43,944 nt of DNA from an uncultured Nitrososphaeria archaeon (GCA_964555135.1 CAZKRR010000002.1:1-43944); one strand, 5' to 3'; shown: positions 612 to 38,236, numbered from the stretch's first letter. Made by a program: numbers and translations. Notes: a model not told the origin generated them from the letters alone.

Positions 612-1532
612 TTAATCAGTATATGGGACTTCATATGTATGAAAGTCTTCTGCAAGATATGTTTCAGGAAATATCTTTACAGCTTCAAGAAGTAGCTTCT
701 CTGAATTATTCTCATACCTGGGGCTTATATGGAATAGGTATAGCCTCTTTACTCTTGCTTTTCTAGCAATCTCAGCTGCTTGCCTCGATGTTGAGTGCCC
801 TTGTTCTGCAGCTTCTACTTCATAGCTTGAATCAAACGTTGAGTCATGAATCAATACATCTGCATTTCTTGCAAACTCAGTAATTCTATCATCTGGCGTG
901 GTATCTCCCGTATAGATAATCTTCCTACCGGGACGCGGTGGTCCAACAGCATCCTCAGGTCTTATTATTCTACCACCCCATTCTACTGATTCTCCTCTTT
1001 GAAGTCTCCCCCATAAAGGTCCTCTAGGTAAACCTATACGTTCCAAAAACTCTACATTCATCTTTCCAGCCCTTTTCTTCTCTCTAAACATATAGCAGAA
1101 AGATTGAATGGTGTGGCAAGATCTAATAGCTTCAACCTCATATTCTCTAGATTGATGGATTAATCCTTCCTTTGTTCTTCTAACTTCTACTTCAAAATGG
1201 ATCTTTCCGTATCTTGTTTTCTGAAACATTTCTATAAAATCTTCTACCCCTGTAGGTCCATAGATTACGATAGGCTCTTTTCTATCTAGCATTGAGAGGG
1301 TGTAGAGTAGCCCAGGCAGTCCTAGTACGTGGTCTCCGTGGAGATGTGTGAGGAATATAGTAAACTTAGCTTTGAATCCTACGCCTGCTTTCATCATCTG
1401 TCTCTGAGTCGATTCTCCACAATCAAACAATAGTAGTTCTCCACTGAAGTTTACTGCGATGGATGGGAGTCCTCTATTAATGCTTGGGGTGCCTCCGCCT
1501 GTACCGAGGAAGGTTAGCCTTAACGTACTCAT
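612..1532 (-). CDS. rnz: ribonuclease Z (tRNA 3' endonuclease, metallo-beta-lactamase fold)
   Basis: 306 aa. N-terminus LTFLGTGGGTPS, HxHxDH motif HLHGDH, C-terminal HIS motif. Overlaps the upstream trm11 gene by 4 nt. Confidence 0.9.
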   Translation of the reverse strand: MSTLRLTFLGTGGGTPSINRGLPSIAVNFSGELLLFDCGESTQRQMMKAGVGFKAKFTIFLTHLHGDHVLGLPGLLYTLSMLDRKEPIVIYGPTGVEDFIEMFQKTRYGKIHFEVEVRRTKEGLIHQSREYEVEAIRSCHTIQSFCYMFREKKRAGKMNVEFLERIGLPRGPLWGRLQRGESVEWGGRIIRPEDAVGPPRPGRKIIYTGDTTPDDRITEFARNADVLIHDSTFDSSYEVEAAEQGHSTSRQAAEIARKARVKRLYLFHISPRYENNSEKLLLEAVKIFPETYLAEDFHTYEVPYTD

Positions 1533-2560: not shown

Positions 2561-3428
2561 ATTTTTTCTTTAATGCTTCTGAGATTATTCCTGCGACACT
2601 ATATTCAGCGAACTTGTTCGGGATAGTATCTGACGCTATTATCCTATCTGCACCTGCGTTAAAGATTTTCTCAACAGCATCTCCAACTAGTAGAGCATGG
2701 ATACATGTTACGTAGATCTTCTGGAAACCACGTTTCTTTAAAAGTTTAATTAATTCAACCATCGTGCCACCCGTACTTATTATATCGTCCACTATTATTG
2801 CTTCCATCCCTGGAATACCGTCAAGTTCTACTCTTACAGTACCTGTAACCTTATCCCTCTCAGATTGAGCTGCCGTATATGTTACTCCTAAGTTTTCTGC
2901 AAGCATTTTGGCCATATCAAGACCTTTCTTCCCAACGGAGACTACGATTGGGTTGCTGAAGTTATATCTCCGGATATGGGCTGCTAGGGGTTCCTCTCCT
3001 CTTAAGTCTATGATAGGGACTGGAGATTCTGGAATAAGCCAGGGACAATGTATATTGACGGTGTATGTTTTTCTTAATCCCAGGTTCTTGAGGATCTTTA
3101 ATAATGTCATGAAGCTTATAGCTTCACCGTCTAGGAATCTTTTATCCTGTCTAGTATATGCTAGGTAAGGTGAGACTAATTCAACCGAGTTTGCACCCAA
3201 ATCTATTAATGTATCAATGAGTAGAAATGTCTGGATTGCATGGGTGTCTTGAGGCGGATGCATACCCTGAATGATGGCTATATCTTCTCCTTTCACATCT
3301 TGTTTTACTCTAATATAGTTTTCACTGTCGGGGAAGAATCTATGCTCAACTTCTATTAGATCAGCTTTCATAATCCTTGATATCTTGTAAGCAATCTCAA
3401 TAGATGCTGGACCTGCTAATAGCTTCAT
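2553..3428 (-). CDS. prs: ribose-phosphate pyrophosphokinase (PRPP synthetase)
   Basis: 291 aa. PRPP-binding loop IIVDDIISTGGT and typical Prs length and layout. Confidence 0.9.
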   Translation of the reverse strand: MKLLAGPASIEIAYKISRIMKADLIEVEHRFFPDSENYIRVKQDVKGEDIAIIQGMHPPQDTHAIQTFLLIDTLIDLGANSVELVSPYLAYTRQDKRFLDGEAISFMTLLKILKNLGLRKTYTVNIHCPWLIPESPVPIIDLRGEEPLAAHIRRYNFSNPIVVSVGKKGLDMAKMLAENLGVTYTAAQSERDKVTGTVRVELDGIPGMEAIIVDDIISTGGTMVELIKLLKKRGFQKIYVTCIHALLVGDAVEKIFNAGADRIIASDTIPNKFAEYSVAGIISEALKKKYG

Positions 3429-3447
3429 GCACTATCTCTCCATAGAT

Positions 3448-4167
3448 TTAGAGCAAGACTATTTCCAATCTCTTATTGAATCTTCCCTTATTGACAGTCT
3501 TTACAATCTTTATTTTTCCAACCTCTTTAGTATTCGATACGTGTGTTCCACCATCTAGTTGGGCATCGAAACCCTCTATCTCAACTATCCTCAAAGAGGG
3601 GAGATTGGGTATTAGTTCAGGTTTTATACGAATTAGCTCTGGATTGTTTACTAGTTCTTCTCTAGGTATGAATCTTATCTTAACATTTTTACCTTCATCT
3701 ACAATCCTATTAGCTTCGTACTCTATTCTCTCAACTTTATCCTTACTTAAATCTTCTAGAGTAAAGTCTATCCTAGCTTTATCTTCACTAATCTGGCTTC
3801 CCGTAATAGTAGAGTTGTATAAATGGTACACGACCCCTGCAAGTATATGTAGTGCCGTATGATAACGCATATGTCTATACCTTTTCCCCCAATCTATGAT
3901 TCCCTTCACTACAGCGCCTCTACTTGGCAACTCCCCGCTTAATACATGGTGTACTTCTTCACCTTTCTTTATGACATGAATTACATTTGATCTATATTGT
4001 TCCCACTCTATCCAGCCTGTATCACTTGGCTGACCACCACCTTCGGGGTAGAAGGCCGTCCTATCGAGTATGACGCTCTCCTCTTTTATATCTGTTACTA
4101 TTGCTTCAAATTCACTGATATAACAATCTCTTAAATAAAGAAGCTCAGTCATTCCAATAATAAACAT
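3448..4167 (-). CDS. alaX: alanyl-tRNA editing protein AlaX (AlaX-M size class)
   Basis: 239 aa. HxxxH motif HTALH. The second metal motif reads DGGTH where CxxxH is expected. The true start may be the M at residue 6 (MTELLYLRD). Confidence 0.8.
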   Translation of the reverse strand: MFIIGMTELLYLRDCYISEFEAIVTDIKEESVILDRTAFYPEGGGQPSDTGWIEWEQYRSNVIHVIKKGEEVHHVLSGELPSRGAVVKGIIDWGKRYRHMRYHTALHILAGVVYHLYNSTITGSQISEDKARIDFTLEDLSKDKVERIEYEANRIVDEGKNVKIRFIPREELVNNPELIRIKPELIPNLPSLRIVEIEGFDAQLDGGTHVSNTKEVGKIKIVKTVNKGRFNKRLEIVLL

Positions 4168-4261
4168 TAAAAGCTAAATGAAAAATATTTCCCGCACATA
4201 TTCATTCATAATCAGATAGGAGTAATAACTGTATTTTAATAACAGGTTACTAGGAATATAT

Positions 4262-4765
4262 TTGATGAGCTTGGGAGGAGAGATATATAGAAAGATTAGG
4301 TCAATCTTTCAAGATACACCACACCGATTTGGTTGGATAGATGAATATGTTGCAGGCTCTGGTAGACCTACAAGCTTCGAGCAGGTTAAATGGGTGAAAG
4401 AGAGAGGAATTTCGATGATAGTATCCCTAACCGAGTCACCTTTACCCAATGAATGGGTGGAAGAGCTCAACATCAAGTATTTGCATTTTCCAATCAAAGA
4501 CCACTCAGCACCAAGCGTTGAAGTAGTAGAAAAAATCGTTAAAGAGATAATGAAAGAAGTTAAAGCGGGAGGGAGGGTACTTGTGCATTGTGGTGCTGGG
4601 CTAGGTAGGACAGGAGTCATATTGGCTTCCTACATTATAGCTAAGAAAAGCATTATACCCGAAGATTCAATAAGGATCATTAGAAAGATGAGACCAGGCT
4701 CAATAGAGCTGAATCAGGAAAAATCTATATATGAATTTTATAGAAGACTGAGCCAGTCGCAGTAA
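4262..4765 (+). CDS. dual-specificity / tyrosine protein phosphatase (CX5R)
   Basis: 167 aa with the active-site signature VHCGAGLGRTG. A TTG at 4262 is immediately followed by an ATG at 4265, which is probably the real start. Confidence 0.8.
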   Translation: MMSLGGEIYRKIRSIFQDTPHRFGWIDEYVAGSGRPTSFEQVKWVKERGISMIVSLTESPLPNEWVEELNIKYLHFPIKDHSAPSVEVVEKIVKEIMKEVKAGGRVLVHCGAGLGRTGVILASYIIAKKSIIPEDSIRIIRKMRPGSIELNQEKSIYEFYRRLSQSQ

Positions 4766-4778
4766 TCTTCCTTCCTAC

Positions 4779-6995
4779 CTAGACTTGTTCTAGGATCTTC
4801 TCTGCCGTCTTTCTACCTATCCCCAGGATTCTTGCCAGGTCGTCAATCGTGGCAGTTCTCAGCTTCTCGATAGATGTATATCCAGCTCGATGGAGAGCTC
4901 TTGCCCTCACTCTTCCTATACCCTTTAATCTAGTGAGGGGTATAAGTTCTTCTCTAACACCATACTTTATTCTTTCCATTAGCCTTTCATACGGTATGAC
5001 GAACCTACTATTTCCAGAAACCTTAGCTATCTGTGAAGCAGAGTAAGCAATCCATTCAGCAGCCTCTCTAAGAGCCGCCATGTCTCCAGGCTGTACCCCA
5101 AATCTGTCATACAGCTCAGCTTCAGGTAATTCCTCAATCCATCCTTCAAGGACCATGGCCAATCTTACAGCATCTAAGTATTCATCGTAACCTGGATCGC
5201 CAGGATCTGGTGCTGGCGCGATAATCCAATCTCTGTTCTTTTCTAGATATTCTTCGAGCAGTGAGATGCTTAGCTTCTTCATAGGTATTCTAGGTACTTC
5301 AGGGGTTAAAGCGATTAAGTGTAGCATGCCGAAAGTATTTAGAGTGGGAGGGGCTTTTTCAAAGTTTTCCAATAGTATCTTAGCTGTTAGAGGATCTATG
5401 TATAATTGAGAGACTCTTATTCCAAGTCTTGTAGCCTTCAGGAATTGACCATTAACCTCGATGAATCTATACGATTTTAAGAATTGTATGGTTGACTCAA
5501 TTCTGCTTCTTACACTCTTTGAACCATAAAGGTGACCGAGATATGTTTCTTCAAAAAATTTTAATAAACTAGGAATACTGTCAACCTCAGCTGAAGATAT
5601 TATTGATAAGACATGAGTCCTTAAATGTTTCTCTGAGGATAGTCTAGAAACAATCTTTTCTAATTCTCCGTTAATATATTCTTCGATGATGTATTCTTTT
5701 TCTTCTTTTGTACGAGAAACCGTTAAAGCATAACCGATTTCATCATATAAAGGTCTACCAGCTCTACCACAGAATTGCTTATACTCTATTACAGGAATCT
5801 TCTGGTAACCGTATCCTGGGATGTACCTTCTTACTTCAGTTATTAATACCATTCTCGCAGGTAGATTTACTCCTGCTGCTAGGGTTGGAGTAGCTACTAC
5901 AGCTTTTAAGAATCTTTTTCTGAAGGCTTCTTCAATTATCCTTCTATGATGGGAAGATAATCCAGCATGATGGAATGCTGCCCCTGCTTCTACAAGTTTA
6001 GCTAGATTCTCTGTAAAGCTACTCCTCTCTTCTATTAACAGTTCTGTTGCGTATTCTCTTAGTTTATCTCTTTCCTCCCAGGATATTGCATCAAGCCTCT
6101 CAGTGAACGCTTGAGCTATCTTAAACGCATAATCTTCAGCCTTCTTCCTAGTAGAAGAAAAGACTAAAGCTTGACCTCCTTCTTCAACTATATTTGACAC
6201 AGCATTAACTACAATATTTTTGTGTAGAATCTTTAATTCTCTGACTTCTCCATCCTTAAATTCTATCACAGAGTCTGTTAATACACCTTCTTTTAACGGA
6301 ACAGGCCTCCAATCTAGCTGAATTATCTTTGCATCCAACCATTTACCGAGATCCTCAGCATTACTTATAGTTGCACTTAATCCTATAAATTGAGCTCTCT
6401 GCAGGATTCTCTTAAGCCTAGTGATCACCATCTCAAGTGTTGGACCACGTTCACTATCACTTATCAAGTGGAGTTCATCAAGGATTACCAGTGATATGTC
6501 TTTAACCCATTGAGCGCCGTGTCTTAGAAGACTATCAGCTTTCTCATTTGTTGATACAATAATATCGAATGCTTGAAGCCACGGATCTGAAGAATCATAA
6601 TCGCCAGTTGAGATAGCTGCTTTAAAGCTTGAGCCAGCACATAAGATCTCATTGATCTCCACTATCTTCTCTGAGGCTAAAGCTCTTAGAGGTACGAGAT
6701 ATAGGACTTTCCCCCCTCGGGTGAGGTGGATAGAAGCTGTAAGTAGAGCAGCCAAAGTCTTACCTGAAGCTGTAGGAGTAGAAAGTATGATATTCTCTCC
6801 TTCTAGTATGCCTGCTTTGATGGCTTCAATCTGAGGTGGATAAAGCTCGCTAATATTCTTCTTAATTAGATTGTCTATGACATACTGGGGTATAGGTAAA
6901 TCTTTAATATTCAAAGGCGCTTCCCTAACCATAAGAGCATACATGAATAGATAAATTATCCTTGTCTTCTTTTCCCCTCTATAAAAACATTGCAA
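4779..6995 (-). CDS. hel308: Ski2-like DNA helicase Hel308/Hjm
   Basis: Walker A TPTASGKT, Walker B DELH, motif III SAT (LSATISN), C-terminal helix-hairpin-helix-like GIGRVRARAL...GIGRKTAEKI. The likely true start is the internal M at 6932 (MVREAPLNIKDLPIP). Confidence 0.85.
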   Translation of the reverse strand: MQCFYRGEKKTRIIYLFMYALMVREAPLNIKDLPIPQYVIDNLIKKNISELYPPQIEAIKAGILEGENIILSTPTASGKTLAALLTASIHLTRGGKVLYLVPLRALASEKIVEINEILCAGSSFKAAISTGDYDSSDPWLQAFDIIVSTNEKADSLLRHGAQWVKDISLVILDELHLISDSERGPTLEMVITRLKRILQRAQFIGLSATISNAEDLGKWLDAKIIQLDWRPVPLKEGVLTDSVIEFKDGEVRELKILHKNIVVNAVSNIVEEGGQALVFSSTRKKAEDYAFKIAQAFTERLDAISWEERDKLREYATELLIEERSSFTENLAKLVEAGAAFHHAGLSSHHRRIIEEAFRKRFLKAVVATPTLAAGVNLPARMVLITEVRRYIPGYGYQKIPVIEYKQFCGRAGRPLYDEIGYALTVSRTKEEKEYIIEEYINGELEKIVSRLSSEKHLRTHVLSIISSAEVDSIPSLLKFFEETYLGHLYGSKSVRSRIESTIQFLKSYRFIEVNGQFLKATRLGIRVSQLYIDPLTAKILLENFEKAPPTLNTFGMLHLIALTPEVPRIPMKKLSISLLEEYLEKNRDWIIAPAPDPGDPGYDEYLDAVRLAMVLEGWIEELPEAELYDRFGVQPGDMAALREAAEWIAYSASQIAKVSGNSRFVIPYERLMERIKYGVREELIPLTRLKGIGRVRARALHRAGYTSIEKLRTATIDDLARILGIGRKTAEKILEQV

Positions 6996-7032: not shown

Positions 7033-10000
7033 CTAAGTTAGCCTATATATTCCAGGTTTAGGGGTGAATAATTTTCCATCGCTTAGCAATCTATTCAGGA
7101 TCGTCTTAATTTCCTGGTCTTCTATTCCATACTCTCTTAAAGCTTCTCTAAGTTCAGCATCTTCAACATATCCTTTCTTATTCTGTATTTCTCCTATAAT
7201 TTTTAGAACAATGCTAAACTTATCTCTTATGCTTTTCGGTTTTCCAGTCATTATAACATCTATGTCCGGTTTTCCCGTCTCAACATCTATACCGACTTCT
7301 GATAGACTCCTCTTCATTAAATCAATAACATCCATTACATCTTCTTCTGTAACATAATCTCTTAAGGCTGCTCTAGCTCTAGCTTCAGCCAAACGGATCA
7401 AAGATTCTAATTGGCGAGCCGTAATAGCTATAGTTGATGTCTGCTGATATATACTTCTCATTTGGAGATAAAAGTTCTCTATGAGTTTTGCTGCACGTGG
7501 AGTCAGCTCAGGCTGAATCCTCTTAGCATATGCGATGTATTTTCTCAGTGTCTCAGGTTTTATCACAGGCTCAGAAGGGGGCATAGACCTACTCTGTAAG
7601 CTGAGAATATGTGTAGCGATCTTCTGGTCATGCTCTGGGATGGGCTCATCTCTAAGAACAAATATCAAGTCAAACCTAGACAAGATCGTAATAGGAAGAT
7701 TAACATTAACCGTAAACGATTCATATGGGTTATATCTTCCAAGTTCAGGGTTCGCTGCTGCGAGTATCGACGTTCTAGCATTAAGAGTAGCGACAATTCC
7801 ACCCTTGGCTATACTAACAGTCTGCTGGGCCATCGATTCATGAATTGCAACTCTATCTTCAGGTCTCATCTTTTCTATCTCATCAATACAGCAGACACCC
7901 ATGTCTGCAAGAACTAGTGCACCGGCTTCCAATATCATGTTTCCTCCTTTATCGCGGACTACAGCTGCGGTGTTATGGACGATGAAGCCATTAGCAACGA
8001 ATGCGTGAGAATCATTTACTGTGATATCGTAGGCTTTCTCTAGTTTAATTTTTTTCAGATCTCTTACCTTGACTAAAATTACCTCATTACCAATACGTTT
8101 ATAATTATTATGTGATCCTCTCTTACATCTAACTAATTGTTGTAAAAGTTTTCTCTTATAGGGGTTACTAAACCCTATATTCTTTGAAAAAGCTATTATT
8201 GAGTGTTTATCAGTGATTGATAGCTCATATATTTCGCCACTTATAACTGCTTTATCTCTTACATTGGATACATGCGGTTTGCGTCTTACAAGAGCACACA
8301 CTATACCGAATCTCCGTAGTAACATGTCAACCTGTTCCGCTAACACTTTACTAGCAGTCGGAAAAGTAATGCATTTACCTTTAACTATACCACCATCATT
8401 TGTGAACAATTGTCTTAAGAAACATGCAATTAGACGGTTCGGTATTATAGATATTGTTGGATGAATCTGTAAGCCATCATATTTATCACCAACTGGTATT
8501 CCAAAGGCAGTTAGAAGTCTAGCCACTACATGGTTAGTGAAACGTACAGTGTAGCAGTTTTCTCTCCTATCTTTCTCAATCTTAGTTTTTATGCCGAATA
8601 ACTTTTTTACTCTTTTGACATATTTGAGCGCGTCAATATACGAACTCGTAGAATAATGTATTGTATAAGACTTGACTCTTCTGGCATGTTTAATTAAATA
8701 ACCACCAGAATAAATGTCCCCTATAAATTCTAGGAACAACTCATTTGGATAGGGAGGTAAGCGGATCTTTTCGATCCCCTTATAGCTTTTATACCCGACG
8801 AATCTAATGTGTGGGATGATTTGTTCTAAGCTCATCCCTAACTCGTTCAACATTTTCCTCAAGACTTGAAGTCTCGGATATTTAAGCCCTCTCCTCCATT
8901 GATAGTAGACGTAGTCTTCATTAACCTGAAGTATTTTTGCCACATTCCTTAGAGTCCCGTATTTTCTGGAAAGTCTAGAGAGTAGTTCTTTTAATTTGCT
9001 GGTATCTATCCCTACGAATACGTCATCTATATACTCGTAGAGGCATCTTCGCCAGTCTCCAATTATTTCTGGTAGCTTAAGGGCTTGTGCAACGTATTCT
9101 CCAACCTTAATCTCAGATGCCTTCTTCCATTTTACATTTTTTCCATCCTCTGAACATAAGAGCTGGGTTTCAGGTGTTACGGCAATTTTTTTCCCGAGAA
9201 ATGTAGACACTTCGATGGCTTCTTCCGCCTTCAGCCTATAATATTGGTTGATCTTGTGTTTCTCAATTTTTCCTAGATCCCTTGAGGGGGCGATTATATC
9301 AATGACCTCGGGATTTTCAGCGATCTCTTCGATGTGGCTTAACCTTACTAGACCGTTCTTTAGGTTTTCCTCGGTTAATCTGCCTATCGGCAGGATGCCC
9401 TTACTCGTATAGATCAAGGTATCCCCAGATACACATAATCCTGCGGCTGTAGAGCCTCTCCCAGAGGTGTAGAGTCCTCGTGGCGCGATCTGTGCAGCAT
9501 ATCTTAGTAGCTGGCTTTTCCCTGTTCCCGGGTCTCCGACCAGTAAGACATGTATGTCTCCTCTTACTCTAACACCGTCTGGGAATTGCTTTGTTCTCCC
9601 TCCGAAGAGTAGTAACATTATTGCTTTCTTGATATGTTCGAGACCATAGATTGATGGTGCGATACTCTCTACGAGTTTCTGATGTATATCTGGAGCACGG
9701 GCCATCTCTTTAAAAATCTTCTCTTCTTCAGGTGTTATCTGGAGTGATTCAGGCTCCTTACTCGCTGTTTCTATGCTTACTGCTTCAAGATACATTTTAG
9801 AAGTCTTTAATGGTGCCTCAGCTGTCCTCTCTTGAATTGCGTATAGTATTCCTGTTACTATAACTCTATCACCTGGTCTAGCTTTATCTACTAAGTCTCC
9901 TCTCAACCCTACGTCTATGCTTCTAGGTAGCTGCCCAGGCGGTAGGTCTTCAGGCTTCTCCTGAACCCCGACCATCTGGTAGTCATAGTACTCACTCTTC

Positions 10001-10518
10001 TCTTCTATTAAGTCGAATTTCTGCCTCCTCCCTCTGCATTTAATGCTATTACATGATTCAGGTAGGACTAGTCTTTGCCCATCTTGCGGGGTAGTCTGTT
10101 CTGCACCGCATACTCTACATCTAAAGACAGCAGTCTTTATTATTGGTTTGACTGAACTAGCTCTTACAACCAATCCATCAATAGCAATAAGTTTCCTAAG
10201 ATGGGATGCTCTAATATCTCTGATCAGGATTACCTCGGGGAGGTTGTAGATTCTTACCTTGAATTCTTTCACCTTTACCGCATACTCTGGGTCTTCTATT
10301 CTTAATTGATTCCATGCTGCTTTCTCAAGTAATGGTAGGTACTTTAAAGGCTCATTTACGATGAGATGGCTTAGTTCTTCATCAAAGATTATTAGGTCAT
10401 TGAAATCTAAAGCTATGCTTATTGCTCTTTGAGCTGCAGATCTCGCTATTATAGAACGGTACTTCTCTTGTTTAAAGAATTCTACAATCTTATCTTCAAT
10501 ATTTGTAATGCTGCTCAT
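7033..10518 (-). CDS. mcm: MCM replicative helicase, interrupted by one in-frame intein
   Basis: 1161 aa. C4 Zn motif CRVCG...CNSIKC, Walker A GDPGTGKS, Walker B CCIDEIEKM, SRFDLIF arginine-finger region. Removing residues 362-849 leaves a 673-aa extein of normal MCM length. Confidence 0.95.
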   Translation of the reverse strand: MSSITNIEDKIVEFFKQEKYRSIIARSAAQRAISIALDFNDLIIFDEELSHLIVNEPLKYLPLLEKAAWNQLRIEDPEYAVKVKEFKVRIYNLPEVILIRDIRASHLRKLIAIDGLVVRASSVKPIIKTAVFRCRVCGAEQTTPQDGQRLVLPESCNSIKCRGRRQKFDLIEEKSEYYDYQMVGVQEKPEDLPPGQLPRSIDVGLRGDLVDKARPGDRVIVTGILYAIQERTAEAPLKTSKMYLEAVSIETASKEPESLQITPEEEKIFKEMARAPDIHQKLVESIAPSIYGLEHIKKAIMLLLFGGRTKQFPDGVRVRGDIHVLLVGDPGTGKSQLLRYAAQIAPRGLYTSGRGSTAAGLCVSGDTLIYTSKGILPIGRLTEENLKNGLVRLSHIEEIAENPEVIDIIAPSRDLGKIEKHKINQYYRLKAEEAIEVSTFLGKKIAVTPETQLLCSEDGKNVKWKKASEIKVGEYVAQALKLPEIIGDWRRCLYEYIDDVFVGIDTSKLKELLSRLSRKYGTLRNVAKILQVNEDYVYYQWRRGLKYPRLQVLRKMLNELGMSLEQIIPHIRFVGYKSYKGIEKIRLPPYPNELFLEFIGDIYSGGYLIKHARRVKSYTIHYSTSSYIDALKYVKRVKKLFGIKTKIEKDRRENCYTVRFTNHVVARLLTAFGIPVGDKYDGLQIHPTISIIPNRLIACFLRQLFTNDGGIVKGKCITFPTASKVLAEQVDMLLRRFGIVCALVRRKPHVSNVRDKAVISGEIYELSITDKHSIIAFSKNIGFSNPYKRKLLQQLVRCKRGSHNNYKRIGNEVILVKVRDLKKIKLEKAYDITVNDSHAFVANGFIVHNTAAVVRDKGGNMILEAGALVLADMGVCCIDEIEKMRPEDRVAIHESMAQQTVSIAKGGIVATLNARTSILAAANPELGRYNPYESFTVNVNLPITILSRFDLIFVLRDEPIPEHDQKIATHILSLQSRSMPPSEPVIKPETLRKYIAYAKRIQPELTPRAAKLIENFYLQMRSIYQQTSTIAITARQLESLIRLAEARARAALRDYVTEEDVMDVIDLMKRSLSEVGIDVETGKPDIDVIMTGKPKSIRDKFSIVLKIIGEIQNKKGYVEDAELREALREYGIEDQEIKTILNRLLSDGKLFTPKPGIYRLT
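7972..9435 (-). mobile_element. 488-aa LAGLIDADG-type intein in the MCM AAA+ core
   Basis: The intein starts with Cys (TGT, rc of 9433..9435) in AAGL|CVSGDTLIY. It ends FIVHN (Asn codon is rc of 7972..7974) followed by +1 Thr (TAAVV). The internal endonuclease motifs are LFLEFIGDIYSGGY and FLRQLFTNDGG. I checked the boundary codons by hand. Confidence 0.9.
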
Positions 10519-10520
10519 CT

Positions 10521-11054
10521 CTATCTAGCCCCTCCTATTGGTGAGACAGACTTCAACCATTCATCAATAAGACTTCTAATTGTTTCATAGAGAAGTGCCT
10601 CTTCCCTTGTAAGATTCTCTACTAAGCTTGCATCGATTCTTTTAGAAGCAAACCCGAGTATCTTGTTGAGTCTTAGTGAGATTATGTCTACAATGATATT
10701 CTTTATATTCTGGTCGAGTTTATCCACGTCTTCTCTTATCATTAAATAGAAGTATCTTGGTAGTTCTTGTAACTCCCCTGGATTATTCTTTTCCTTCCAT
10801 TCTAGTTGTATCAAATTTTTTAAATCTATCACTTTATCTCCATACTCAACTATACCTGCTTCATAGAGTTTAGCTGCTGCCCACTTACTAATCATTAACG
10901 TCATCCCTCTCCTTAAATTTTCAAAGACCTGACCTGGGAGAACAAGCTTCTGAACATCTTTTAGTAAGATAACCTTCTTCTCAGAATTATCATACTCTAA
11001 CTTAATAAGCTCGAGCAACTTCCTAAACTCTTCTATTAAGACTTCGACCCCCAT
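10521..11054 (-). CDS. gins23: GINS subunit, Gins23-type (B-domain then A-domain)
   Basis: 177 aa, ending 2 nt before the MCM start codon, the arrangement known in Sulfolobus. The C-terminal half has the GINS A-domain-like pattern LPRYFY...RLNKI...LTREE. No search was run. Confidence 0.6.
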   Translation of the reverse strand: MGVEVLIEEFRKLLELIKLEYDNSEKKVILLKDVQKLVLPGQVFENLRRGMTLMISKWAAAKLYEAGIVEYGDKVIDLKNLIQLEWKEKNNPGELQELPRYFYLMIREDVDKLDQNIKNIIVDIISLRLNKILGFASKRIDASLVENLTREEALLYETIRSLIDEWLKSVSPIGGAR

Positions 11055-15809: not shown

Positions 15810-18101
15810 ATGAATATTAGACAGAGTCTCCTTCTAGTAACTATTGTATCAATCGCAATGATAGCATCATCCCTAAATGGGGTGGCAGATTCTCAGGAAG
15901 AAAATACTTTACAAATAATTTTCTACATGGATACAGGTTTAGGCGAACCTATAATCATTAATAGTTGTAGTGGTTTAGCCAGAATAGGAGAAAACGTAAG
16001 CTGCACAGCTGAACTTGAGATCACATACGACAACGATACGAAAATAGTCTTCAAAGGCTGGTACAGGAATGTCATAGATGAAGACTTAGAACTAGTTACT
16101 GAAGAAAAAACCATGACAGTCACAGTTAGAGAAGAACAGACTCAACAAGAATATACTGCAAAGTATCAAGTCTACTATCTAATAGATCTTGACATCGGTT
16201 ACCAAAGAATTAGTGAGTGGAGACCTAGGTACAGCTCATACACGATAACGGTGCAGGAAAGCTGGAAACCAGAAGAAGGTATAAGAAAAGTCTTCTTGAA
16301 GTGGGTTGGAGACATGACTGGAAGTAATCCGAGCATTTACGTGGACAAGATTACTAGACCGTTAAAAGCAAAAGCAATCTGGCAAACACAATATTATGTA
16401 GATATAATCTCTGAATATCCATTATCAGTTGAGAGCGGATGGTTTAATGAAACCCAAAAAATCTATGTTGAGCCTCTAGACCCTGTAATATATGAGAATA
16501 GCGGAGAAACAAAGATCTTGCTTGAAAAATATCTTGTAGATTATTGGTGGGGGGAGAGAGAAGATTTCGAAGTTGGTAAAGACTCTTTCGAGTTAGTAGT
16601 AGATTTACCTTTAACGATAAAGGCCTTCTGGAATAAACTTCACCACGTAGTTCTAGAATCAGATTATGTAAGACAGGTGCTCTTCGATGAATGGATAAGA
16701 GAAAACGATAAGTTAATCTTCAATCAACTAGAAAGAGAGGTTATCTGGGTTAACGGTACTAGAATAGTCTTCGATAAATGGATAAATGATATATCTTCAC
16801 CTAATAAAGACATAGAAGTCGTCGTAACCAGCCCCATAAGAGCTCGTGCTACGTGGAGGATCTACTATCTAGTCTCCGTTGAATCGTCAGAACCCGGTAT
16901 CAGTATAAAAGCTAGTAGGTTAGGCTGGGTCGAGAAGGGGAGTAACGTAGTTATCAATGCAACCCCCATTGAGAGAGAGCTAGAAAAAGGAGTCAAAGCA
17001 TTATTTAGAGAATGGAGCGGAAATGTTATAAGCTTAGACCCAATAATAGAGATCTCAAACCTAAGCTATCCAATAATAGTTAAAGCATTATGGATTAAGA
17101 AGTATCTTATAACTATCGACGCACCAGATAAGGCCGGCATAGAGAAAGAAAGATGGATACTAGAAGATGAAAGATACGATATCGTAGCTCCCATACAAAT
17201 CTCAATAAATAATTTAACAAGGATGGTTTTCAATAACTGGAATGGATGCATTGTCGTCAAAGATAATGTATGCAGTCTAAGCAATGTTAAGCAACCTCTA
17301 ACAATTAAAGCAAACTATTTCATAGAGAAGAGAATAAGAATAGAAGCAGTATCACTGAATAATGAAGTCATAGAAGACGTACATTTCATTGTTAAGCATG
17401 AATCGGATGAGATAAAGCAGCTGTCTTCGAGAAATATCGTATGGATGAAGACAGGAAGCTGGATAATCCAGAATGCTACGTGGAGAGAATATGATGTAAC
17501 TTCAACAAGAGAATTTAAGATAACTGAAGACTCAGACGAACTCTTAAGAATATCGGTGAGAATATTTAGATTATCATTCAAGATTAATGATTACCTAGGT
17601 TTCCCAGTTAAAGATGCAGAGATAATCATTAAAACAATTGATGGGAGAACAATATATGAAGGTAAAACAGATGAAAACGGGTTATTGGATAACGTTGGTC
17701 CTCTACCTCCATTAGACATGGTCGCATACGTTACTTATATGGACTATCAAATAATGAAAAATGTAAGTATAAAGACTTCAAGCCCAATCTACATAACTAT
17801 ACCTTTCTCTCAGACATTAGTCCAACTAATCATGATCACAATTATAGCTGGAGCCTCTCTAACTACTTTAGCTATTATTAGGAGGCTTCGAAAACCAAGA
17901 GAAATACTTACTGAAATACCTATACCGCAAGAGCAACCTCCGCCTACAATAAGCTTAGATGAAACTATTAAAGAAATAGGAATTAGGAAAGCCTCTGCAG
18001 TAACTCTTGAAGACGTAATTGAAAAACTGAAAGAGAGCGGTGAAAAACCTGAAGAAATCTTAGGGGAGCTGGCTGAAAAAGTAGGAAAGAAGAAAAAGTA
18101 A
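15810..18101 (+). CDS. large secreted, C-terminally membrane-anchored repeat protein (surface or S-layer-associated candidate)
   Basis: 763 aa. N-terminal signal-like helix LLLVTIVSIAMIASSL, six degenerate repeats, a CarboxypepD_reg-like segment GFPVKDAEIIIKTIDGRTIYEGKTDENGLL, a TM helix around residues 669-690, and a charged cytoplasmic tail ending KKKK. Many N-x-S/T sequons. Confidence 0.8.
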   Translation: MNIRQSLLLVTIVSIAMIASSLNGVADSQEENTLQIIFYMDTGLGEPIIINSCSGLARIGENVSCTAELEITYDNDTKIVFKGWYRNVIDEDLELVTEEKTMTVTVREEQTQQEYTAKYQVYYLIDLDIGYQRISEWRPRYSSYTITVQESWKPEEGIRKVFLKWVGDMTGSNPSIYVDKITRPLKAKAIWQTQYYVDIISEYPLSVESGWFNETQKIYVEPLDPVIYENSGETKILLEKYLVDYWWGEREDFEVGKDSFELVVDLPLTIKAFWNKLHHVVLESDYVRQVLFDEWIRENDKLIFNQLEREVIWVNGTRIVFDKWINDISSPNKDIEVVVTSPIRARATWRIYYLVSVESSEPGISIKASRLGWVEKGSNVVINATPIERELEKGVKALFREWSGNVISLDPIIEISNLSYPIIVKALWIKKYLITIDAPDKAGIEKERWILEDERYDIVAPIQISINNLTRMVFNNWNGCIVVKDNVCSLSNVKQPLTIKANYFIEKRIRIEAVSLNNEVIEDVHFIVKHESDEIKQLSSRNIVWMKTGSWIIQNATWREYDVTSTREFKITEDSDELLRISVRIFRLSFKINDYLGFPVKDAEIIIKTIDGRTIYEGKTDENGLLDNVGPLPPLDMVAYVTYMDYQIMKNVSIKTSSPIYITIPFSQTLVQLIMITIIAGASLTTLAIIRRLRKPREILTEIPIPQEQPPPTISLDETIKEIGIRKASAVTLEDVIEKLKESGEKPEEILGELAEKVGKKKK
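15942..17339 (+). repeat. six tandem degenerate coding repeats of about 75-82 aa inside the surface protein
   Basis: The repeat anchor is (hydrophobic)F.(K/E/N)W..., seen as VFKGW (W84), VFLKW (W165), LVDYWW (W246), VFDKW (W324), LFREW (W402) and VFNNW (W477). Each is followed about 30 residues later by (A/L)(K/R)A.W/Y...Y(Y/L)(V/I). The pattern resembles InlB B-repeat-like modules. Confidence 0.7.
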
Positions 18102-34292: not shown

Positions 34293-34391
34293 GAGATCAC
34301 TGAGGAAGTCTTCAATTAATTAGTGTTTCCCATTTTCAGTGGAGTCTCCAAGAAATATATCTTAGTAAATTGACTAATTTTACGGAGTAAC

Positions 34392-34904
34392 TTGGACAAG
34401 CCTGTTTCCGACATAAAGCTTTCATGTAGGTTCTATCAAGAACCAGGAGGATGGGAAAGAGTATCGTTAAATCTATCTTCAAATGGGTGGATAAAAATAG
34501 ATAGAAGAGTAGTAAAAGATGAGTTAGAGATAGAATATACTGTAGAGAGTATTGATGGATTGGAGATTCTATTATCATTAAAAAGCAGGGTTGGCTTCCC
34601 GAACCTGGAGACGTTCAAGAAGCTTCTTGAATGCTTACTAACCGATTGCTGGTACATTGATATTTATTACTGTTTTAGGAATATCAATGTAGAGAGTGTA
34701 GCTAAAGAGCTGGGTTTACATTTCAACTCCAATGAAGTAAAGAGATTGAAGCTTGGAGGTTCTGAAATTCTAGTTGAGACATATCCCGCTGCAGGTAGGA
34801 TTATTGTAAGCCATAGAGTTGGTTTAAGAGATATTGACTGCATTGAAAAAATCTACTCGAAGCTTTTTAGGAAAATCTTAATCAATGAGGTGAGCCAACA
34901 TTGA
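34392..34904 (+). CDS. hypothetical protein, first gene of the crenactin operon (occupies the arcadin-1 position; homology unverified)
   Basis: 170-aa ORF with no internal Met. TTG at 34392 is the only ATG/GTG/TTG codon in the open frame, and an in-frame TGA lies at 34371. TATA-like AAATATAT at 34353..34360. Its stop overlaps the crenactin TTG (TTGA). Confidence 0.6.
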   Translation: MDKPVSDIKLSCRFYQEPGGWERVSLNLSSNGWIKIDRRVVKDELEIEYTVESIDGLEILLSLKSRVGFPNLETFKKLLECLLTDCWYIDIYYCFRNINVESVAKELGLHFNSNEVKRLKLGGSEILVETYPAAGRIIVSHRVGLRDIDCIEKIYSKLFRKILINEVSQH

Positions 34905-36169
34905 GTGAAGAATACAAACGTTCACATGTTTTTGGGATAGATTATGGTACAAGCGATTTTAAGTACGGTCCTATAACGATCGGTGAGATACCCGAAGTAA
35001 CAGAGAATAGAGGATACTTTACCGAGAAGAACTCTATTATGTCTAAAGTGATGGGTGTAGGTAAAGATATCGTAGTCGGGAAAGAACTCCCACTATTCCT
35101 TGAATCAAGAGAAGACGTTGCAGAAAGGCTAGTCTACCCTATGAGGAATGGTATAGTTGAGAGAAATGATGTGAAAGCTTGGCAAGTAACGAGAGAATTA
35201 ACCAGTTATGCTCTTGAAAACTTTGCTCCAAGCGACCCAGATTTTAGGGGATTCTATGTTGTCGCAAGCCTAGCGGTTGTAGCTCCTAGATACATGTATG
35301 AGCAATTATTCGATATATTTGGAGAACTAAATACTGAAAGAACGCTTGTTAGAGCTGCTACGATAATTCCTCAACCTCTAGCGGTTGCTATTGCTCATAA
35401 AATCCCGACATGTGTAGTTGTTGAGAGCGGTCATGGAAATACCCAGGTATGCCCAATCTCAATGTATCCGATAAGAAATGCGGTTCTAGCTCTCAATAGG
35501 GGTGGAGGCGCAGCAAATGTTTTAACCTCGGAGATCCTCAAAGATACTGGTTATGGAGACTTAGCTAAAGAAGAAAAACTAGTTAGAAGAGTTAAAGAGC
35601 AGATAGGTCTCCTACCGAGACGGCTTGAAGAAGCCGTAGATTTTGCTAGGAGGAATCCGGACAAAGTAAAGAGGGAGATAAGGATAGAGGGTACGAGGAT
35701 TAAGATAGATCTAGGAGATGAAAGTTGGACAAGATTCTTGATCGGCGAATATGTCTTCAATCCTGGGCATGAGGTCTTTCAAAGCTACTTCAAAAGAGGG
35801 ATGCCTAGACCAAGCGACGTCAAGATAGGAGATACATACTTCTATGGAATGACAGATATGGCTGAAGCTATAATTCAAGCAGTTGAGAAATGCTCCATTG
35901 AACTTCAACCTCATTTATTCTCCAAGATTATCTTGTCGGGCGGAAACTTTAACTGGAATACACCCAGGGGGTTAGAAGGGGTCGCCGTCTCTTCAGATGA
36001 GAAGATAAAGATTATGTTGAAAGAGAAGGGGATAGAGAATATCCAAGCAACAGTTGCTAGAGAGCCAACATACTCTGTTTGGAGAGGATGTATAGTCTAT
36101 GGATATGCTGTTCCCTACGATTTTAAGTGGAGATGGGAAAGGATGGAGGGATGGTTAAACTATGCGTAG
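34901..36169 (+). CDS. cren-1: crenactin (archaeal actin homologue)
   Basis: 422 aa. Actin-fold motifs: phosphate-1 FGIDYGTSDFKYG, phosphate-2 VVVESGHGNTQV, adenosine IILSGGNFNW. Long collinear similarity to Pyrobaculum crenactin as I remember it (IIPQPLAVAIA, ALNRGG, ILKD.GY.D.A.EE, LPRRL.EA, W.RFLIGE..F.P.HE, EP.YSVWRG..IYGYA.P). TTG start with Shine-Dalgarno GAGGTGA at 34887..34893. Confidence 0.9.
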   Translation: MSEEYKRSHVFGIDYGTSDFKYGPITIGEIPEVTENRGYFTEKNSIMSKVMGVGKDIVVGKELPLFLESREDVAERLVYPMRNGIVERNDVKAWQVTRELTSYALENFAPSDPDFRGFYVVASLAVVAPRYMYEQLFDIFGELNTERTLVRAATIIPQPLAVAIAHKIPTCVVVESGHGNTQVCPISMYPIRNAVLALNRGGGAANVLTSEILKDTGYGDLAKEEKLVRRVKEQIGLLPRRLEEAVDFARRNPDKVKREIRIEGTRIKIDLGDESWTRFLIGEYVFNPGHEVFQSYFKRGMPRPSDVKIGDTYFYGMTDMAEAIIQAVEKCSIELQPHLFSKIILSGGNFNWNTPRGLEGVAVSSDEKIKIMLKEKGIENIQATVAREPTYSVWRGCIVYGYAVPYDFKWRWERMEGWLNYA

Positions 36170-36842
36170 AAGACCGACAATAGAAGATATAATATCTAGT
36201 CTACTGGTAGATGAAGGGTTCTACGAGGTATCGAGAAAAAGTGGATCGATGGAGGTGGATAGTCAACTAATCCTATCTGATGGTAAAGTAGAGATAGCCG
36301 TGAATATTCTAAGTGAAGATTCATGTAATTCAAGATCTATGGTACATGAGATGTTAATTGAGACCCTGAAACTTCAAAGTAAATACGATGGTGTAATTCT
36401 TGCAGTACCGAGAAGATACTCAAAGATTATTGATGAAAGCGTCTTGATTAAGTATGGGGTAGGTTTAATAATCTATGACATGATGGGCGCAGATGAAATT
36501 ATACCTCCTAGACTAAACAATAATAGAAAAGAAAAAGCAGAAGATATTCGAAAAAATAACCAGAATCTTCCTATTAACGAGATTGCTCTCATAAGGTCTG
36601 AGATCTCTAGGATTACTAGGATACTTGAGGAAATGGAGGCTAGACTGGATAGATTAGAGAGAGAGCAGAGAATACTAGCAAGTAGGATTAGTGAGCTAGA
36701 AAAGGCAAAGCCCTCTATAATCCGTGAAGAAAGAATAAGCCAGCAGATAAAGAGTAAATCTCCAGACCATAATAATGAAGAAGCCCTCCCCTCCTATCTT
36801 AGAGATAATCCTTGGATCGATATACTCTCTAAGAGGACGTGA
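36162..36842 (+). CDS. arcadin-2-like candidate (globular N-domain, coiled coil, short C-terminal tail)
   Basis: 226 aa. Starts with an ATG inside the last 8 nt of crenactin. Heptad-rich segment IRSEISRITRILEEMEARLDRLEREQRILASRISELEKAK. Tail ALPSYLRDNPWIDILSKRT. The assignment rests on position and architecture only. Confidence 0.5.
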   Translation: MRRRPTIEDIISSLLVDEGFYEVSRKSGSMEVDSQLILSDGKVEIAVNILSEDSCNSRSMVHEMLIETLKLQSKYDGVILAVPRRYSKIIDESVLIKYGVGLIIYDMMGADEIIPPRLNNNRKEKAEDIRKNNQNLPINEIALIRSEISRITRILEEMEARLDRLEREQRILASRISELEKAKPSIIREERISQQIKSKSPDHNNEEALPSYLRDNPWIDILSKRT

Positions 36843-37630
36843 ATACTCTGAAGATAATAGTTCTAGGGTCAGGATCAATAATTCCAACAAAAAATAGATT
36901 CTCAACATCATTTCTCATAGAGTATCCTATGGGTAGGATGCTCTTAGATATTGGACCAGGAACTATAGAGAAATTAAGGAGGATGCATATCCACCCCAAT
37001 TCTATCGATAGATTATTCATAACTCATTTCCACTTAGACCATACACTGGATCTTCCAGCATTGATAAAGATTAGGATGTTTAACGAGCTTGGTGGTCCTC
37101 TCCAAAACCCTCAGATTCTTAACATCTATGGTCCTACTGGTTTATCAAGCTTTATAGATAAATTCTGTTCTCATGGAGGCGTATATGAGTATCTTTCAGA
37201 GATGATGGGTAATCTAGATTTTCTTAGAATCCATGAGGTGGGAGAAGGTCTCGTAGAAGAATCAGGCAATCTTAGAGTTTATGCCGTATCTGTTGAGCAT
37301 TATAATGGTTTAGCGTATAGGGTGGAGGTAGATAATGTAAGCATAGCTTATTCTGGAGACTCTATCTACGATGAGAAGATGGTAAAGCTTGCAGAAGGCG
37401 TAGACATCCTCATACATGAATGTTCATTCCCAAAAGAATTACTCCTGGGAAAACATACTTCTGATGAAGAATTAATAGAGATTGGGAGAAGAACGAAGCC
37501 TAAGCTGCTCCTCGTAAATCATCTATACCCAGCTTGGGAAGGGAGAGAAAGAGAGCTTGAGGATAAACTTAGAAAAAATACTGGATGTAAAGTCTACGTT
37601 GTAAAAGATATGGATATTATATATGTATAA
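36839..37630 (+). CDS. metallo-beta-lactamase-fold hydrolase, RNase Z/ElaC-like paralogue
   Basis: 263 aa. LGSGS N-terminus, HxHxDH motif HFHLDH. GTG start overlapping the preceding stop (GTGA). Confidence 0.85.
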   Translation: MNTLKIIVLGSGSIIPTKNRFSTSFLIEYPMGRMLLDIGPGTIEKLRRMHIHPNSIDRLFITHFHLDHTLDLPALIKIRMFNELGGPLQNPQILNIYGPTGLSSFIDKFCSHGGVYEYLSEMMGNLDFLRIHEVGEGLVEESGNLRVYAVSVEHYNGLAYRVEVDNVSIAYSGDSIYDEKMVKLAEGVDILIHECSFPKELLLGKHTSDEELIEIGRRTKPKLLLVNHLYPAWEGRERELEDKLRKNTGCKVYVVKDMDIIYV

Positions 37631-37714
37631 CGGAGATACTCCGCCCAGTTGATCAAATATCTGTGATAAACTATAGTTTTAAAGAGAAGTTAGTCTGCGT
37701 AATATCGGGGAAAC

Positions 37715-38236
37715 TTGATCTTAAGTGATTTCGACCTCTGGGCATACATTAAGGGTGGACGTCTAATTATAGAGCCTTTTGATGAATCCATAGTTAGAGA
37801 GAATGGCGTAGACCTTAGAATAGGTAGGATGGTCGCTAGAATGAAGAAAATCGATAAGCCCCTGGACACTAGGAATACAGAGAAGATCGAGGAATTCTAT
37901 ACTATCGAGGAAGGAGAAGACTTCATAATATGGCCTCATGAACACCTCCTACTCCATACTCTTGAGTACATCAAGCTTCCAGTAGACTTGATGGGTTTCG
38001 TAAACCTGAGGAGTAGCTATGCAAGAGTCGGATTAATCATCCCGCCAACAATCATTGATGCAAATTTTGAAGGAGAACTAACTATAGAGCTTGTAGGCGG
38101 AGACTTCCCAGTAAAGCTTTACAGTGGGGATAGATTCCTACATGTCGTCTTCGCTAAGCTTTCATCTGCTGTAGAGAAACCATACCAAGGGAGATATCAG
38201 GGGCAGAGAGGAGTTAGGCTGCCATCATTTAGGTAA
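37715..38236 (+). CDS. dcd: dCTP deaminase / dUTPase family protein
   Basis: 173 aa. The TTG start gives the family-typical N-terminus MILSD. Also ENGVDLRIG and the GxxxxVELVG-type C-terminal beta region. Confidence 0.85.
   Translation: MILSDFDLWAYIKGGRLIIEPFDESIVRENGVDLRIGRMVARMKKIDKPLDTRNTEKIEEFYTIEEGEDFIIWPHEHLLLHTLEYIKLPVDLMGFVNLRSSYARVGLIIPPTIIDANFEGELTIELVGGDFPVKLYSGDRFLHVVFAKLSSAVEKPYQGRYQGQRGVRLPSFR

Follow-up and report, generated by a model that had tools for sequence, protein, structure and literature searches.

The 43,944-nt stretch of DNA analysed here (hereafter the window) carries an operon for an archaeal actin, crenactin, and comes from a Caldarchaeales archaeon of hot springs. 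The operon comprises four genes on the plus strand, read directly from the sequence: g1 (34392-34904, 170 aa, TTG start), the crenactin gene (34901-36169, 422 aa, TTG start), a gene encoding an arcadin-2 homolog (36162-36842, 226 aa, ATG start) and g4 (36839-37630, 263 aa, GTG start). Working from sequence homology, synteny, motif conservation and predicted folds, we consider it very probable that the locus is the crenactin cytoskeleton module of its host, Candidatus Geocrenenecus, and a reduced variant of the arcade cluster, with arcadin-2 serving as a groove-binding depolymeriser, g1 as a crenactin-associated protein and g4 as a passenger. The arcade cluster is that of Pyrobaculum calidifontis, reportedly described by Ettema et al. 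in 2011 and Izore et al. in 2016. Our synteny sample covers 80 non-Pyrobaculum crenactin loci (designated by L-numbers), with the genes located within 6 kb of crenactin; L081, a metagenomic contig encoding a crenactin identical to that of P. calidifontis, served as the Pyrobaculum reference and as the canonical cluster for direct comparison.

The 422-aa protein is, as judged by sequence, a crenactin of a non-Thermoproteales branch, in agreement with the initial annotation of the window. It matches the P. calidifontis crenactin structure 4cj7 (Protein Data Bank, PDB) with an E-value of 6.9e-116 over residues 2-418 (the best eukaryotic actins: E 3e-7), and is collinear with P. calidifontis crenactin at 45% full-length identity. 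The NCBIfam crenactin model (NF053560, cut-off 630 bits) is by far the top-scoring model for the window protein; P. calidifontis crenactin itself scores 712.6 bits. Functionally important residues are in place: the phosphate-1 loop GIDYGTS occupies residues 12-18, the water-activating glutamine Q158 aligns with Q164 of P. calidifontis, and I333/E334 align with V339/E340. Both sites – catalytic Q164 and the polymerisation interface residues V339/E340 – were singled out in the P. calidifontis protein by Izore et al. (PMC5173319), and D14-S18, Q158 and E334 are invariant across 15 diverse crenactin homologs. Among the 120 homologs listed, nearly all are approximately 422 aa long with query coverage of approximately 100%, and every close homolog that bears a functional name is called crenactin. 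By analogy with the Pyrobaculum protein, the window crenactin would be expected to form filaments.

Could the protein instead be an actin-fold ATPase of the MreB, ParM or Hsp70 type? The observation pointing in this direction is a weak secondary match to the NCBIfam MamK model (48.7 bits, cut-off 400). It is dwarfed by the 566-bit crenactin match, and the 60 PDB matches listed contain no MreB, ParM or Hsp70: the named ones other than crenactin are eukaryotic actins and actin-related proteins (Arp) at E 1e-7 or weaker. We regard this alternative as refuted.

The initial annotation placed the crenactin start at the TTG codon 34901, and we concur. The next in-frame methionine is residue 47, well past the GIDYGTS loop, and the crenactin genes of 41 orthologous loci begin at the equivalent codon – be it ATG, GTG or TTG – encode the conserved N-terminus MSEEYKR and carry a conserved GGTG motif 6-9 nt upstream, which supports the TTG start. 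Most Wolframiiraptor loci use ATG, two loci use GTG, and Geocrenenecus together with all Brockarchaeota-type loci uses TTG. The Shine-Dalgarno sequence GAGGTGA is located at 34887-34893 on the plus strand, as had been noted, although its spacing to the TTG is 7 nt and not 8 nt. The Brockarchaeota-type crenactin genes (L022-L032, L040 and L044), all of which start with TTG, are preceded by a GGAGAGTGT-like motif.

The gene immediately downstream of crenactin encodes, on the evidence of profile and iterative searches, a homolog of arcadin-2: a distant one, and not an equivalog by the NCBI criterion. The window protein matches the NCBIfam arcadin-2 model Rkd2 (NF053561, arCOG05584) end to end with an E-value of 7.9e-6, and Rkd2 is the only specific NCBIfam match for 19 of the 29 members of the window arcadin-2 family. 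The match is no coiled-coil artefact, since the N-terminal domain on its own aligns collinearly with Rkd2 in four out of five cases. When compared by hhalign with the genuine 203-aa arcadin-2 of P. calidifontis (which itself scores 300.3 bits on Rkd2, cut-off 290), the family aligns over the N-terminal domain at 95.2% (E 2.8e-8). A jackhmmer search started from the P. calidifontis protein reaches the window open reading frame (ORF) at E 2.5e-49, and recovers a family gene in 76 non-Pyrobaculum sources, namely 75 loci and the window itself. On this homology evidence, the initial description of the cluster as carrying ‘different accessory genes’ does not hold for the downstream gene, whose product also has a predicted crenactin-binding motif at its C-terminus; it stands for the upstream gene g1, which shows no profile similarity to arcadin-1 (hhalign 0.1%, see below).

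Synteny leads to the same pairing. A comparison across the 80 loci, as the initial annotation had proposed, places an arcadin-2 family gene next to crenactin in 75 of them, and the two are also adjacent in Pyrobaculum L081. Arcadin-2 is mostly located downstream and overlaps crenactin; it lies upstream in the Terraquivivens/Caldarchaeum/Pelearchaeum group (L042, L058-L062, L065-L067, L069 and L071). No arcadin-2 was found within 6 kb of crenactin in the Calditenuaceae loci (L068 and L075-L079), where the genes adjoining crenactin look like housekeeping genes. Loci of the marine Culexarchaeia (L037, L070 and L073) have the arcadin-2 family next to crenactin, and these archaea have been independently scored as having arCOG05584 arcadin-2 (PMC9723716). 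Searching PDB sequences with the arcadin-2 family profile returned only coiled-coil noise, in a library that lacks chains shorter than 20 residues; of arcadin-2, only the 17-residue C-terminal peptide has been crystallised (PMC5173319).

The AlphaFold2 (AF2) model of the window arcadin-2 consists of an alpha/beta domain (residues 1-115), a long helix/coiled coil (137-182), a disordered linker (186-204) and a C-terminal helix. The family alignment mirrors this organisation: the N-terminal domain is conserved, the coiled-coil linker varies, and the C-terminus, LPSFLKDNPWxEILSxRG, is markedly conserved. Such a combination of a conserved core, a non-conserved linker and a small conserved C-terminal helix matches the published architecture of arcadin-2 (PMC5173319). 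The C-terminal motif LPSYLRDNPWIDILSKRT, encoded at 36786-36839 on the plus strand and predicted to form the crenactin groove-binding helix, can be aligned with residues 187-203 of the P. calidifontis protein, the peptide RGGIGENEWVKILRSKR. At its end, the window protein reads DNPWIDILSKRT / ALPSYLRDNPWIDILSKRT, with the core DNPWIDILSKR, and that of P. calidifontis reads ENEWVKILRSKR. The motif [DEN]-N-x-W-[VIL]-x-[IVL]-L is common to 92 out of 94 arcadin-2 family members, and P210, N216, W218 and L222 are invariant in the family.

In Pyrobaculum, the arcadin-2 helix binds the hydrophobic groove of crenactin with a Kd of 31 nM, with a tryptophan as a key contact (PMC5173319); it competes with the D-loop and depolymerises the filaments (PMC5173319, Izore et al.). 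By analogy, we infer that the C-terminal helix of the window protein binds the groove of its own crenactin: the DNPWIDILSKR helix would insert into the hydrophobic groove in competition with the D-loop of the next subunit and, by virtue of this competition, arcadin-2 would depolymerise filaments and sequester monomers. The N-terminal domain and the coiled coil, which make up the remainder of the protein, would provide for dimerisation and localisation.

The N-terminal domain of arcadin-2 (36162-36506, residues 1-115) is predicted to adopt a restriction-endonuclease/XisH-like fold, with the predicted local distance difference test score (pLDDT) at approximately 77-91 over residues 1-120. The nearest structures are the XisH-family proteins 2inb and 2okf and SPO1766 (3dnx), with target-normalised template modelling (TM) scores of 0.50-0.56; AF2093 is a weaker structural match, with a target TM of approximately 0.3. 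The family alignment contains no invariant acidic or lysine catalytic residues in this domain, and no invariant DNA-binding ones.

The layout of the four genes agrees in every coordinate with the initial annotation, which had reported overlaps of 4, 8 and 4 nt. At the g1/crenactin junction, TTGA combines the TTG start (34901-34903) with the TGA stop (34902-34904); at the crenactin/arcadin-2 junction, the 8-nt ATGCGTAG holds the ATG start (36162-36164) and the TAG stop (36167-36169); and at the arcadin-2/g4 junction, GTGA combines the GTG start (36839-36841) with the TGA stop (36840-36842). The three closest Geocrenenecus genomes (L001-L003) show an identical -4/-8/-4 pattern, so the overlaps are conserved rather than accidental. 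Approximately 32 nt before the g1 start, at 34353-34360 on the plus strand, lies a TATA-like box, AAATATAT, within a block that does not vary between the window and three Geocrenenecus loci; the box is the likely archaeal promoter of the four-gene unit. On the other side, the TTTTAAAG box (37677-37684, plus strand), a T-run plus TATA-like element located approximately 30 nt ahead of the dCTP deaminase gene, which starts at 37715, is likewise invariant in the window and L001-L003, and would mark the 3' boundary of the unit, with the next gene promoted separately. With overlapping genes, a TATA-like box of its own and a presumably separately promoted gene behind it, the tight unit postulated in the initial annotation is borne out, and its boundaries are consistent with a single four-gene transcription unit. 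One promoter upstream of g1 together with the start-stop overlaps would couple the translation of the four genes and fix the relative amounts of the four proteins.

It had been considered at the outset that identical clusters might already be annotated as arcade clusters in close relatives. Such clusters do exist, in all of the approximately 20 Wolframiiraptoraceae genomes sampled, but their members are annotated only as ‘hypothetical protein’ or ‘crenactin’, and never as an arcade cluster.

The upstream gene g1 belongs to a small family that is closely tied to crenactin. Its database relatives are all annotated as hypothetical, and an exhaustive hidden Markov model (HMM) search of 1.84 billion proteins yielded only 14 representative clusters, all of 165-179 aa. 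The family is found directly upstream of crenactin in 41 of the 80 loci, including 20 Wolframiiraptoraceae loci, often with a 4-nt overlap, and 12 Brockarchaeota-type loci, where the gap is 110-150 nt; across L022-L032, L040 and L044, g1 does not overlap crenactin and the spacing is 107-156 nt. Longer upstream proteins of Bathyarchaeia and of one Culexmicrobium locus (L037) are homologous to g1 over the whole core (hhalign 96.3%, E 1.6e-9) and are counted among the 41. Reverse synteny gives the same picture: in three out of three cases, g1 homologs that were chosen independently of crenactin sit immediately upstream of a gene for a 412-422-aa actin-domain protein, which is followed by an unannotated gene for a 217-234-aa protein, in surroundings unlike those of the window. 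The AF2 model of g1 (pLDDT 78, predicted TM score (pTM) 0.75) comprises two alpha/beta units, and the best of the 50 top Foldseek matches are tandem ACT-like domains with a TM of 0.25-0.3. As the resemblance to ACT/ferredoxin-like folds is only of low TM, we assign no function to g1.

Given its location, arcadin-1 is the obvious candidate identity for g1. The gene has the position and strand of arcadin-1 of P. calidifontis, directly upstream of crenactin, whose start it often overlaps, and arcadin-1 has been listed for Caldarchaeales in the literature (PMC9723716). The direct comparison, however, speaks strongly against this identity: hhalign of arcadin-1 with either of the two g1 sub-families gives 0.1%. 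Profile searches of the PDB, which includes the arcadin-1 structure 5LY5, returned nothing at E-values up to 10, and 5LY5 is not among the best 50 Foldseek matches of the g1 model. The lengths differ as well, with 165-179 aa in the g1 family against approximately 113 aa for arcadin-1, and the exhaustive search found no members of arcadin-1 size. Finally, jackhmmer searches started from arcadin-1 reach Pyrobaculum loci only: they detected no homolog in the window, nor within 6 kb of crenactin in the 80 non-Pyrobaculum loci. That g1 is nonetheless a true, extremely diverged arcadin-1 homolog strikes us as highly improbable. If Caldarchaeales do possess arcadin-1, it lies elsewhere in the genome. 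In our reading, g1 fills the slot of arcadin-1 without being homologous to it and, on the strength of its sequence and synteny, is most likely another crenactin-associated factor.

Several members of the family carry C-terminal additions. The g1-family proteins of 232-256 aa located upstream of crenactin in some Bathyarchaeia and Culexmicrobium (L033 181-951, L037 5310-6008, L046 5276-6004 and L050 5279-6004) have a C-terminal extension of approximately 45 residues with weak matches to ribbon-helix-helix (RHH) proteins: aCcr1 (E 0.004), RelB/DinJ (E 0.014) and ORF56/CopG-like proteins (E 3e-4). A DNA-binding domain fused to a crenactin-linked protein of the g1 family recalls ParR. Wolframiiraptor-type g1 proteins (L009, L012, L015 and L018) end in a short basic tail containing tryptophan (LLRWRR, IMGWMK, LMGWVK and LLGWIR), which could be a membrane-targeting or groove-binding peptide; the tail of Brockarchaeota-type g1 is basic and contains no tryptophan, and g1 of Geocrenenecus and of the window lacks such a tail.

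A bolder proposal, which we consider less likely than not, is that the g1 family constitutes an unrecognised ‘fifth arcadin’, a dedicated partner of crenactin that replaces arcadin-1 in Wolframiiraptoraceae, Brockarchaeota, some Bathyarchaeia and one Culexmicrobium, with the RHH-fused forms coupling the filaments or operon expression to DNA in a ParR-like manner. If this were true, then, together with the restriction-endonuclease-like domain of arcadin-2, it would imply that the actin module ancestral to TACK worked in association with DNA as well as in determining shape.

Related considerations apply to the module as a whole, whose main task might be a ParM/ParR-like one in chromosome segregation or cytokinesis rather than the maintenance of cell shape, with arcadin-2, g1 or both acting as a DNA-linked adaptor. 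Pyrobaculum arcadin-2 localises between segregated nucleoids (PMC9723716, PMC5840170), ParR likewise binds the hydrophobic groove of ParM (PMC5173319), and both the predicted restriction-endonuclease/XisH-like fold of the arcadin-2 N-terminal domain and the RHH-like extension of g1 homologs in some Bathyarchaeia and Culexmicrobium genomes would suit such a role. On the other hand, the arcadin-2 domain lacks invariant catalytic or DNA-binding residues, the RHH matches are weak (E 3e-4 to 1e-2) and absent from the window g1, no centromere-like repeats were noticed, although no search aimed at them was made, and crenactin of Pyrobaculum forms cell-long helical structures (PMC5840170). On balance, we consider a primary role in segregation or cytokinesis unlikely, and favour the cytoskeletal module.

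The fourth gene, g4, encodes a protein of the metallo-beta-lactamase (MBL) fold (Pfam Lactamase_B_2 and Lactamase_B). It scores 127 bits, in two stretches, on the NCBIfam RNase_Z model (TIGR02651), below the cut-off of 293, and its nearest PDB match is RNase Z 1y44 (E 6e-21), restricted to residues 5-174. By sequence, it is an RNase Z/ELAC-like paralog. The window contains a second metallo-beta-lactamase gene (612-1532, minus strand, 306 aa) with a tRNase Z endonuclease domain (Lactamase_B_4); of the two, it is the more likely true RNase Z, and g4 would accordingly be a paralog that serves a different role. Only in approximately 20 of the 80 loci, all of them Wolframiiraptoraceae, does g4 directly follow arcadin-2. 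Judging from this distribution, g4 is probably a co-transcribed, lineage-specific passenger and not a cytoskeletal component.

Alternatively, all four genes could form one machine, in which g4 would hydrolyse a nucleotide or second messenger, or process an RNA, that controls filament dynamics. The 4-nt GTGA overlap joining g4 to arcadin-2 is kept in L001-L003, g4 follows arcadin-2 in all of the approximately 20 Wolframiiraptoraceae loci, g4-like MBL genes are found at most three genes away from crenactin in a few other lineages (L041, L054 and L070), and g4 gives a weak full-length match to a cyclic-nucleotide phosphodiesterase model. However, EF-2, cupin and dCTP deaminase genes are equally syntenic in Wolframiiraptoraceae, so that the adjacency of g4 may only reflect shared ancestry; g4 does not accompany the g1-crenactin-arcadin-2 triads in Brockarchaeota-type genomes, and 54 of the 80 loci lack it; and the Pyrobaculum cluster has no MBL gene. 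A four-component machine is thus quite unlikely in our assessment, and we keep g4 as a passenger.

The remaining genes of the canonical cluster are missing from the window. Neither jackhmmer searches started from the Pyrobaculum proteins nor ORF annotation revealed a homolog of arcadin-1, arcadin-3 or arcadin-4 in its 44 kb. The initial annotation had remarked on the absence of a long SMC-like arcadin-3 or -4 gene nearby: this is correct for arcadin-4, whereas arcadin-3 is a 56-aa protein and not SMC-like. Arcadin-3 was found in Pyrobaculum loci only, and the jackhmmer matches to arcadin-4 are ABC ATPases, except in L063. This locus, from the Thermoprotei metagenome-assembled genome (MAG) B3_G16, is the only one of the 80 with a true arcadin-4 (2840-5350, jackhmmer E 1e-266), encoded just downstream of crenactin and arcadin-2, and may represent an intermediate between full and reduced clusters. 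Since, with this single exception, arcadin-1, -3 and -4 are missing from all 80 non-Pyrobaculum loci, they appear to be lineage-specific additions.

Another small gene, which we call c5, directly follows arcadin-2 in approximately 18 loci of Bathyarchaeia, Methanomethylicota and others (for example, L046 7855-8166, L033 2807-3085, L041 7929-8273 and L057 7708-7986); it is absent from the window. The cysteine-rich protein of approximately 92-114 aa has four invariant cysteines in the motif VTCPED..PVLVTECGRCPKFIRR...C and no PDB or NCBIfam match. We rejected c5 as a candidate for arcadin-1 or arcadin-3 in view of this lack of PDB and NCBIfam matches, and as jackhmmer started from arcadin-3 does not reach it.

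We assign the contig to Candidatus Geocrenenecus, of the family Wolframiiraptoraceae and the order Caldarchaeales, formerly ‘Aigarchaeota’, by crenactin identity (taxonomy: PMC9246946). In a GTDB scan with one genome per species, the window crenactin is 96% identical to that of G. arthurdayi, 90% to G. sp. JGI-0000106-J15, 87% to G. huangii and 79% to G. dongiae, followed by Wolframiiraptor species at 70-73% and, at 59-66%, by Brockarchaeota, Bathyarchaeia, Culexmicrobium, Methanomethylicota, Terraquivivens, Caldarchaeum, Pelearchaeum and Calditenuaceae. Literature main texts contained nothing usable on the cell morphology of the host lineage.

The rest of the window is ordinary chromosome, with genes for EF-2, an intein-containing MCM, GINS, a Hel308-type helicase, ribosomal protein S4 and molybdopterin proteins; a tRNA scan of the window found zero tRNA genes. 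The initial annotation overstated the base composition as that of a very AT-rich genome: with a GC content of 39%, and values between 0.35 and 0.41, the window is only moderately AT-rich. The 1161-aa MCM helicase (7033-10518, minus strand) is split by an intein that bears a homing-endonuclease domain of the LAGLIDADG type (Pfam Intein_splicing and LAGLIDADG_3), and the gene for a GINS subunit (10521-11054, minus strand) lies directly upstream of it. A 763-aa ORF (15810-18101, plus strand) begins with a segment resembling a signal peptide and has a transmembrane helix at the C-terminal end as well as a tail rich in Lys and Glu; Pfam and NCBIfam give no match for it, and it is probably an S-layer-like surface protein or an adhesin. 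The 763-aa and 1161-aa ORFs were considered as SMC-like arcadin-4 candidates and rejected, being a probable surface protein and the intein-containing MCM, respectively.

Several points weigh against interpreting the locus as a reduced arcade cluster that works like its Pyrobaculum counterpart. At 566.5 bits, crenactin stays below the NCBIfam equivalog cut-off of 630, which marks it as a member of a divergent, non-Thermoproteales branch and not as a strict NCBI equivalog, and the arcadin-2 homolog reaches 25.7 bits on Rkd2 as compared to a cut-off of 290. With both proteins diverged from the Pyrobaculum proteins that have been studied, their biochemistry may differ. The C-terminal motif of non-Pyrobaculum arcadin-2 has an additional conserved LPS[FY] element that is missing in Pyrobaculum, and the binding mode may consequently be extended. 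Furthermore, g1 has no functional domain detectable in Pfam, NCBIfam or Foldseek searches. Finally, Caldarchaeales are reported to have FtsZ and CdvBC as well, which bears on the cellular role of crenactin (PMC9723716).

The presence of crenactin in the host lineage is not new. The distribution given in the initial annotation, Thermoproteales and Korarchaeota, is the picture of 2011: crenactin has since been reported in Aigarchaeota (PMC4571572, PMC9723716), among them Ca. Caldiarchaeum subterraneum, a study of which placed the origin of crenactin at the base of TACK (PMC4571572), and our GTDB scan finds crenactin relatives encoded in at least 209 species. Caldarchaeales have been noted to encode crenactin, arcadin-1 (arCOG05582) and arcadin-2, and the marine Culexarchaeia crenactin and arcadins-1, -2 and -4 (PMC9723716); recent reviews treat the crenactin system as essentially a Thermoproteales matter (PMC10936438, PMC7617429). 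In the literature, we found no description of the conserved operon, of a pan-TACK C-terminal motif or of the g1 family. What we regard as modestly new is the recognition of crenactin and arcadin-2 as a conserved core, of an unnamed family that replaces arcadin-1, and of the predicted fold of the arcadin-2 N-terminal domain.

Crenactin is among the closest prokaryotic relatives of eukaryotic actin, and all experimental work on it comes from one genus, Pyrobaculum. The crenactin-arcadin-2 pair emerges from our comparison as a core conserved across TACK archaea, down to the tryptophan-containing helix predicted to bind the groove, with the upstream slot held by a different, unnamed family in about half of the lineages sampled. 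The locus offers a testable minimal actin-regulator system of three proteins, together with a candidate new actin-associated protein. Lineages that have FtsZ and ESCRT besides crenactin could allow the roles of the three cytoskeletal and division systems to be separated; Wolframiiraptor gerlachensis shares the four-gene cluster and is cultured in the laboratory (PMC9246946).

How does the locus compare with systems described before? The earlier arCOG surveys of Caldarchaeales, Culexarchaeia and Methanomethylicia (PMC4571572, PMC9723716) deal with the same lineage and gene families as the window, but as presence/absence tables, without operon structure, the C-terminal motif or the g1 family. 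The closest characterised system is the Pyrobaculum arcade cluster, which in L081 has the order arcadin-1 (119-aa ORF, 5LY5 match at E 1e-58), crenactin, arcadin-2 (203 aa), arcadin-3 (56 aa) and arcadin-4 (795 aa; 1035 bits on Rkd4, NF053563). In both clusters crenactin is immediately followed by arcadin-2 on the same strand, arcadin-2 has the same three-part architecture with a C-terminal N-x-W-[VI]-x-IL, and a small gene lies directly upstream of crenactin. By profile comparison, the upstream genes are non-homologous: 170-aa g1 in the window versus 113-119-aa arcadin-1 in Pyrobaculum. Pyrobaculum has the 56-aa arcadin-3 and the 795-aa SMC/Rad50-like arcadin-4, and the window has neither; conversely, the window cluster has an appended RNase Z-like MBL gene, unlike that of Pyrobaculum. 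The spacing also differs, with overlaps of 4-8 nt in the window as opposed to gaps of 16-26 nt in L081, as do the hosts, with Caldarchaeales reported to have FtsZ and CdvBC and Thermoproteales to lack both (PMC9723716).

The comparison extends to actin-like systems outside the arcade. The window context is chromosomal and rich in housekeeping genes (EF-2, MCM, GINS and ribosomal protein S4), unlike that of the plasmid-borne ParM/ParR, and arcadin-2 has no sequence relationship to ParR, WH2 or thymosin. The mode of contact is nevertheless shared: in ParM/ParR and in actin with WH2 or thymosin-beta4, just as in crenactin-arcadin-2, a short helix of the partner protein is accommodated in the groove between subdomains IA and IIA (PMC5173319).

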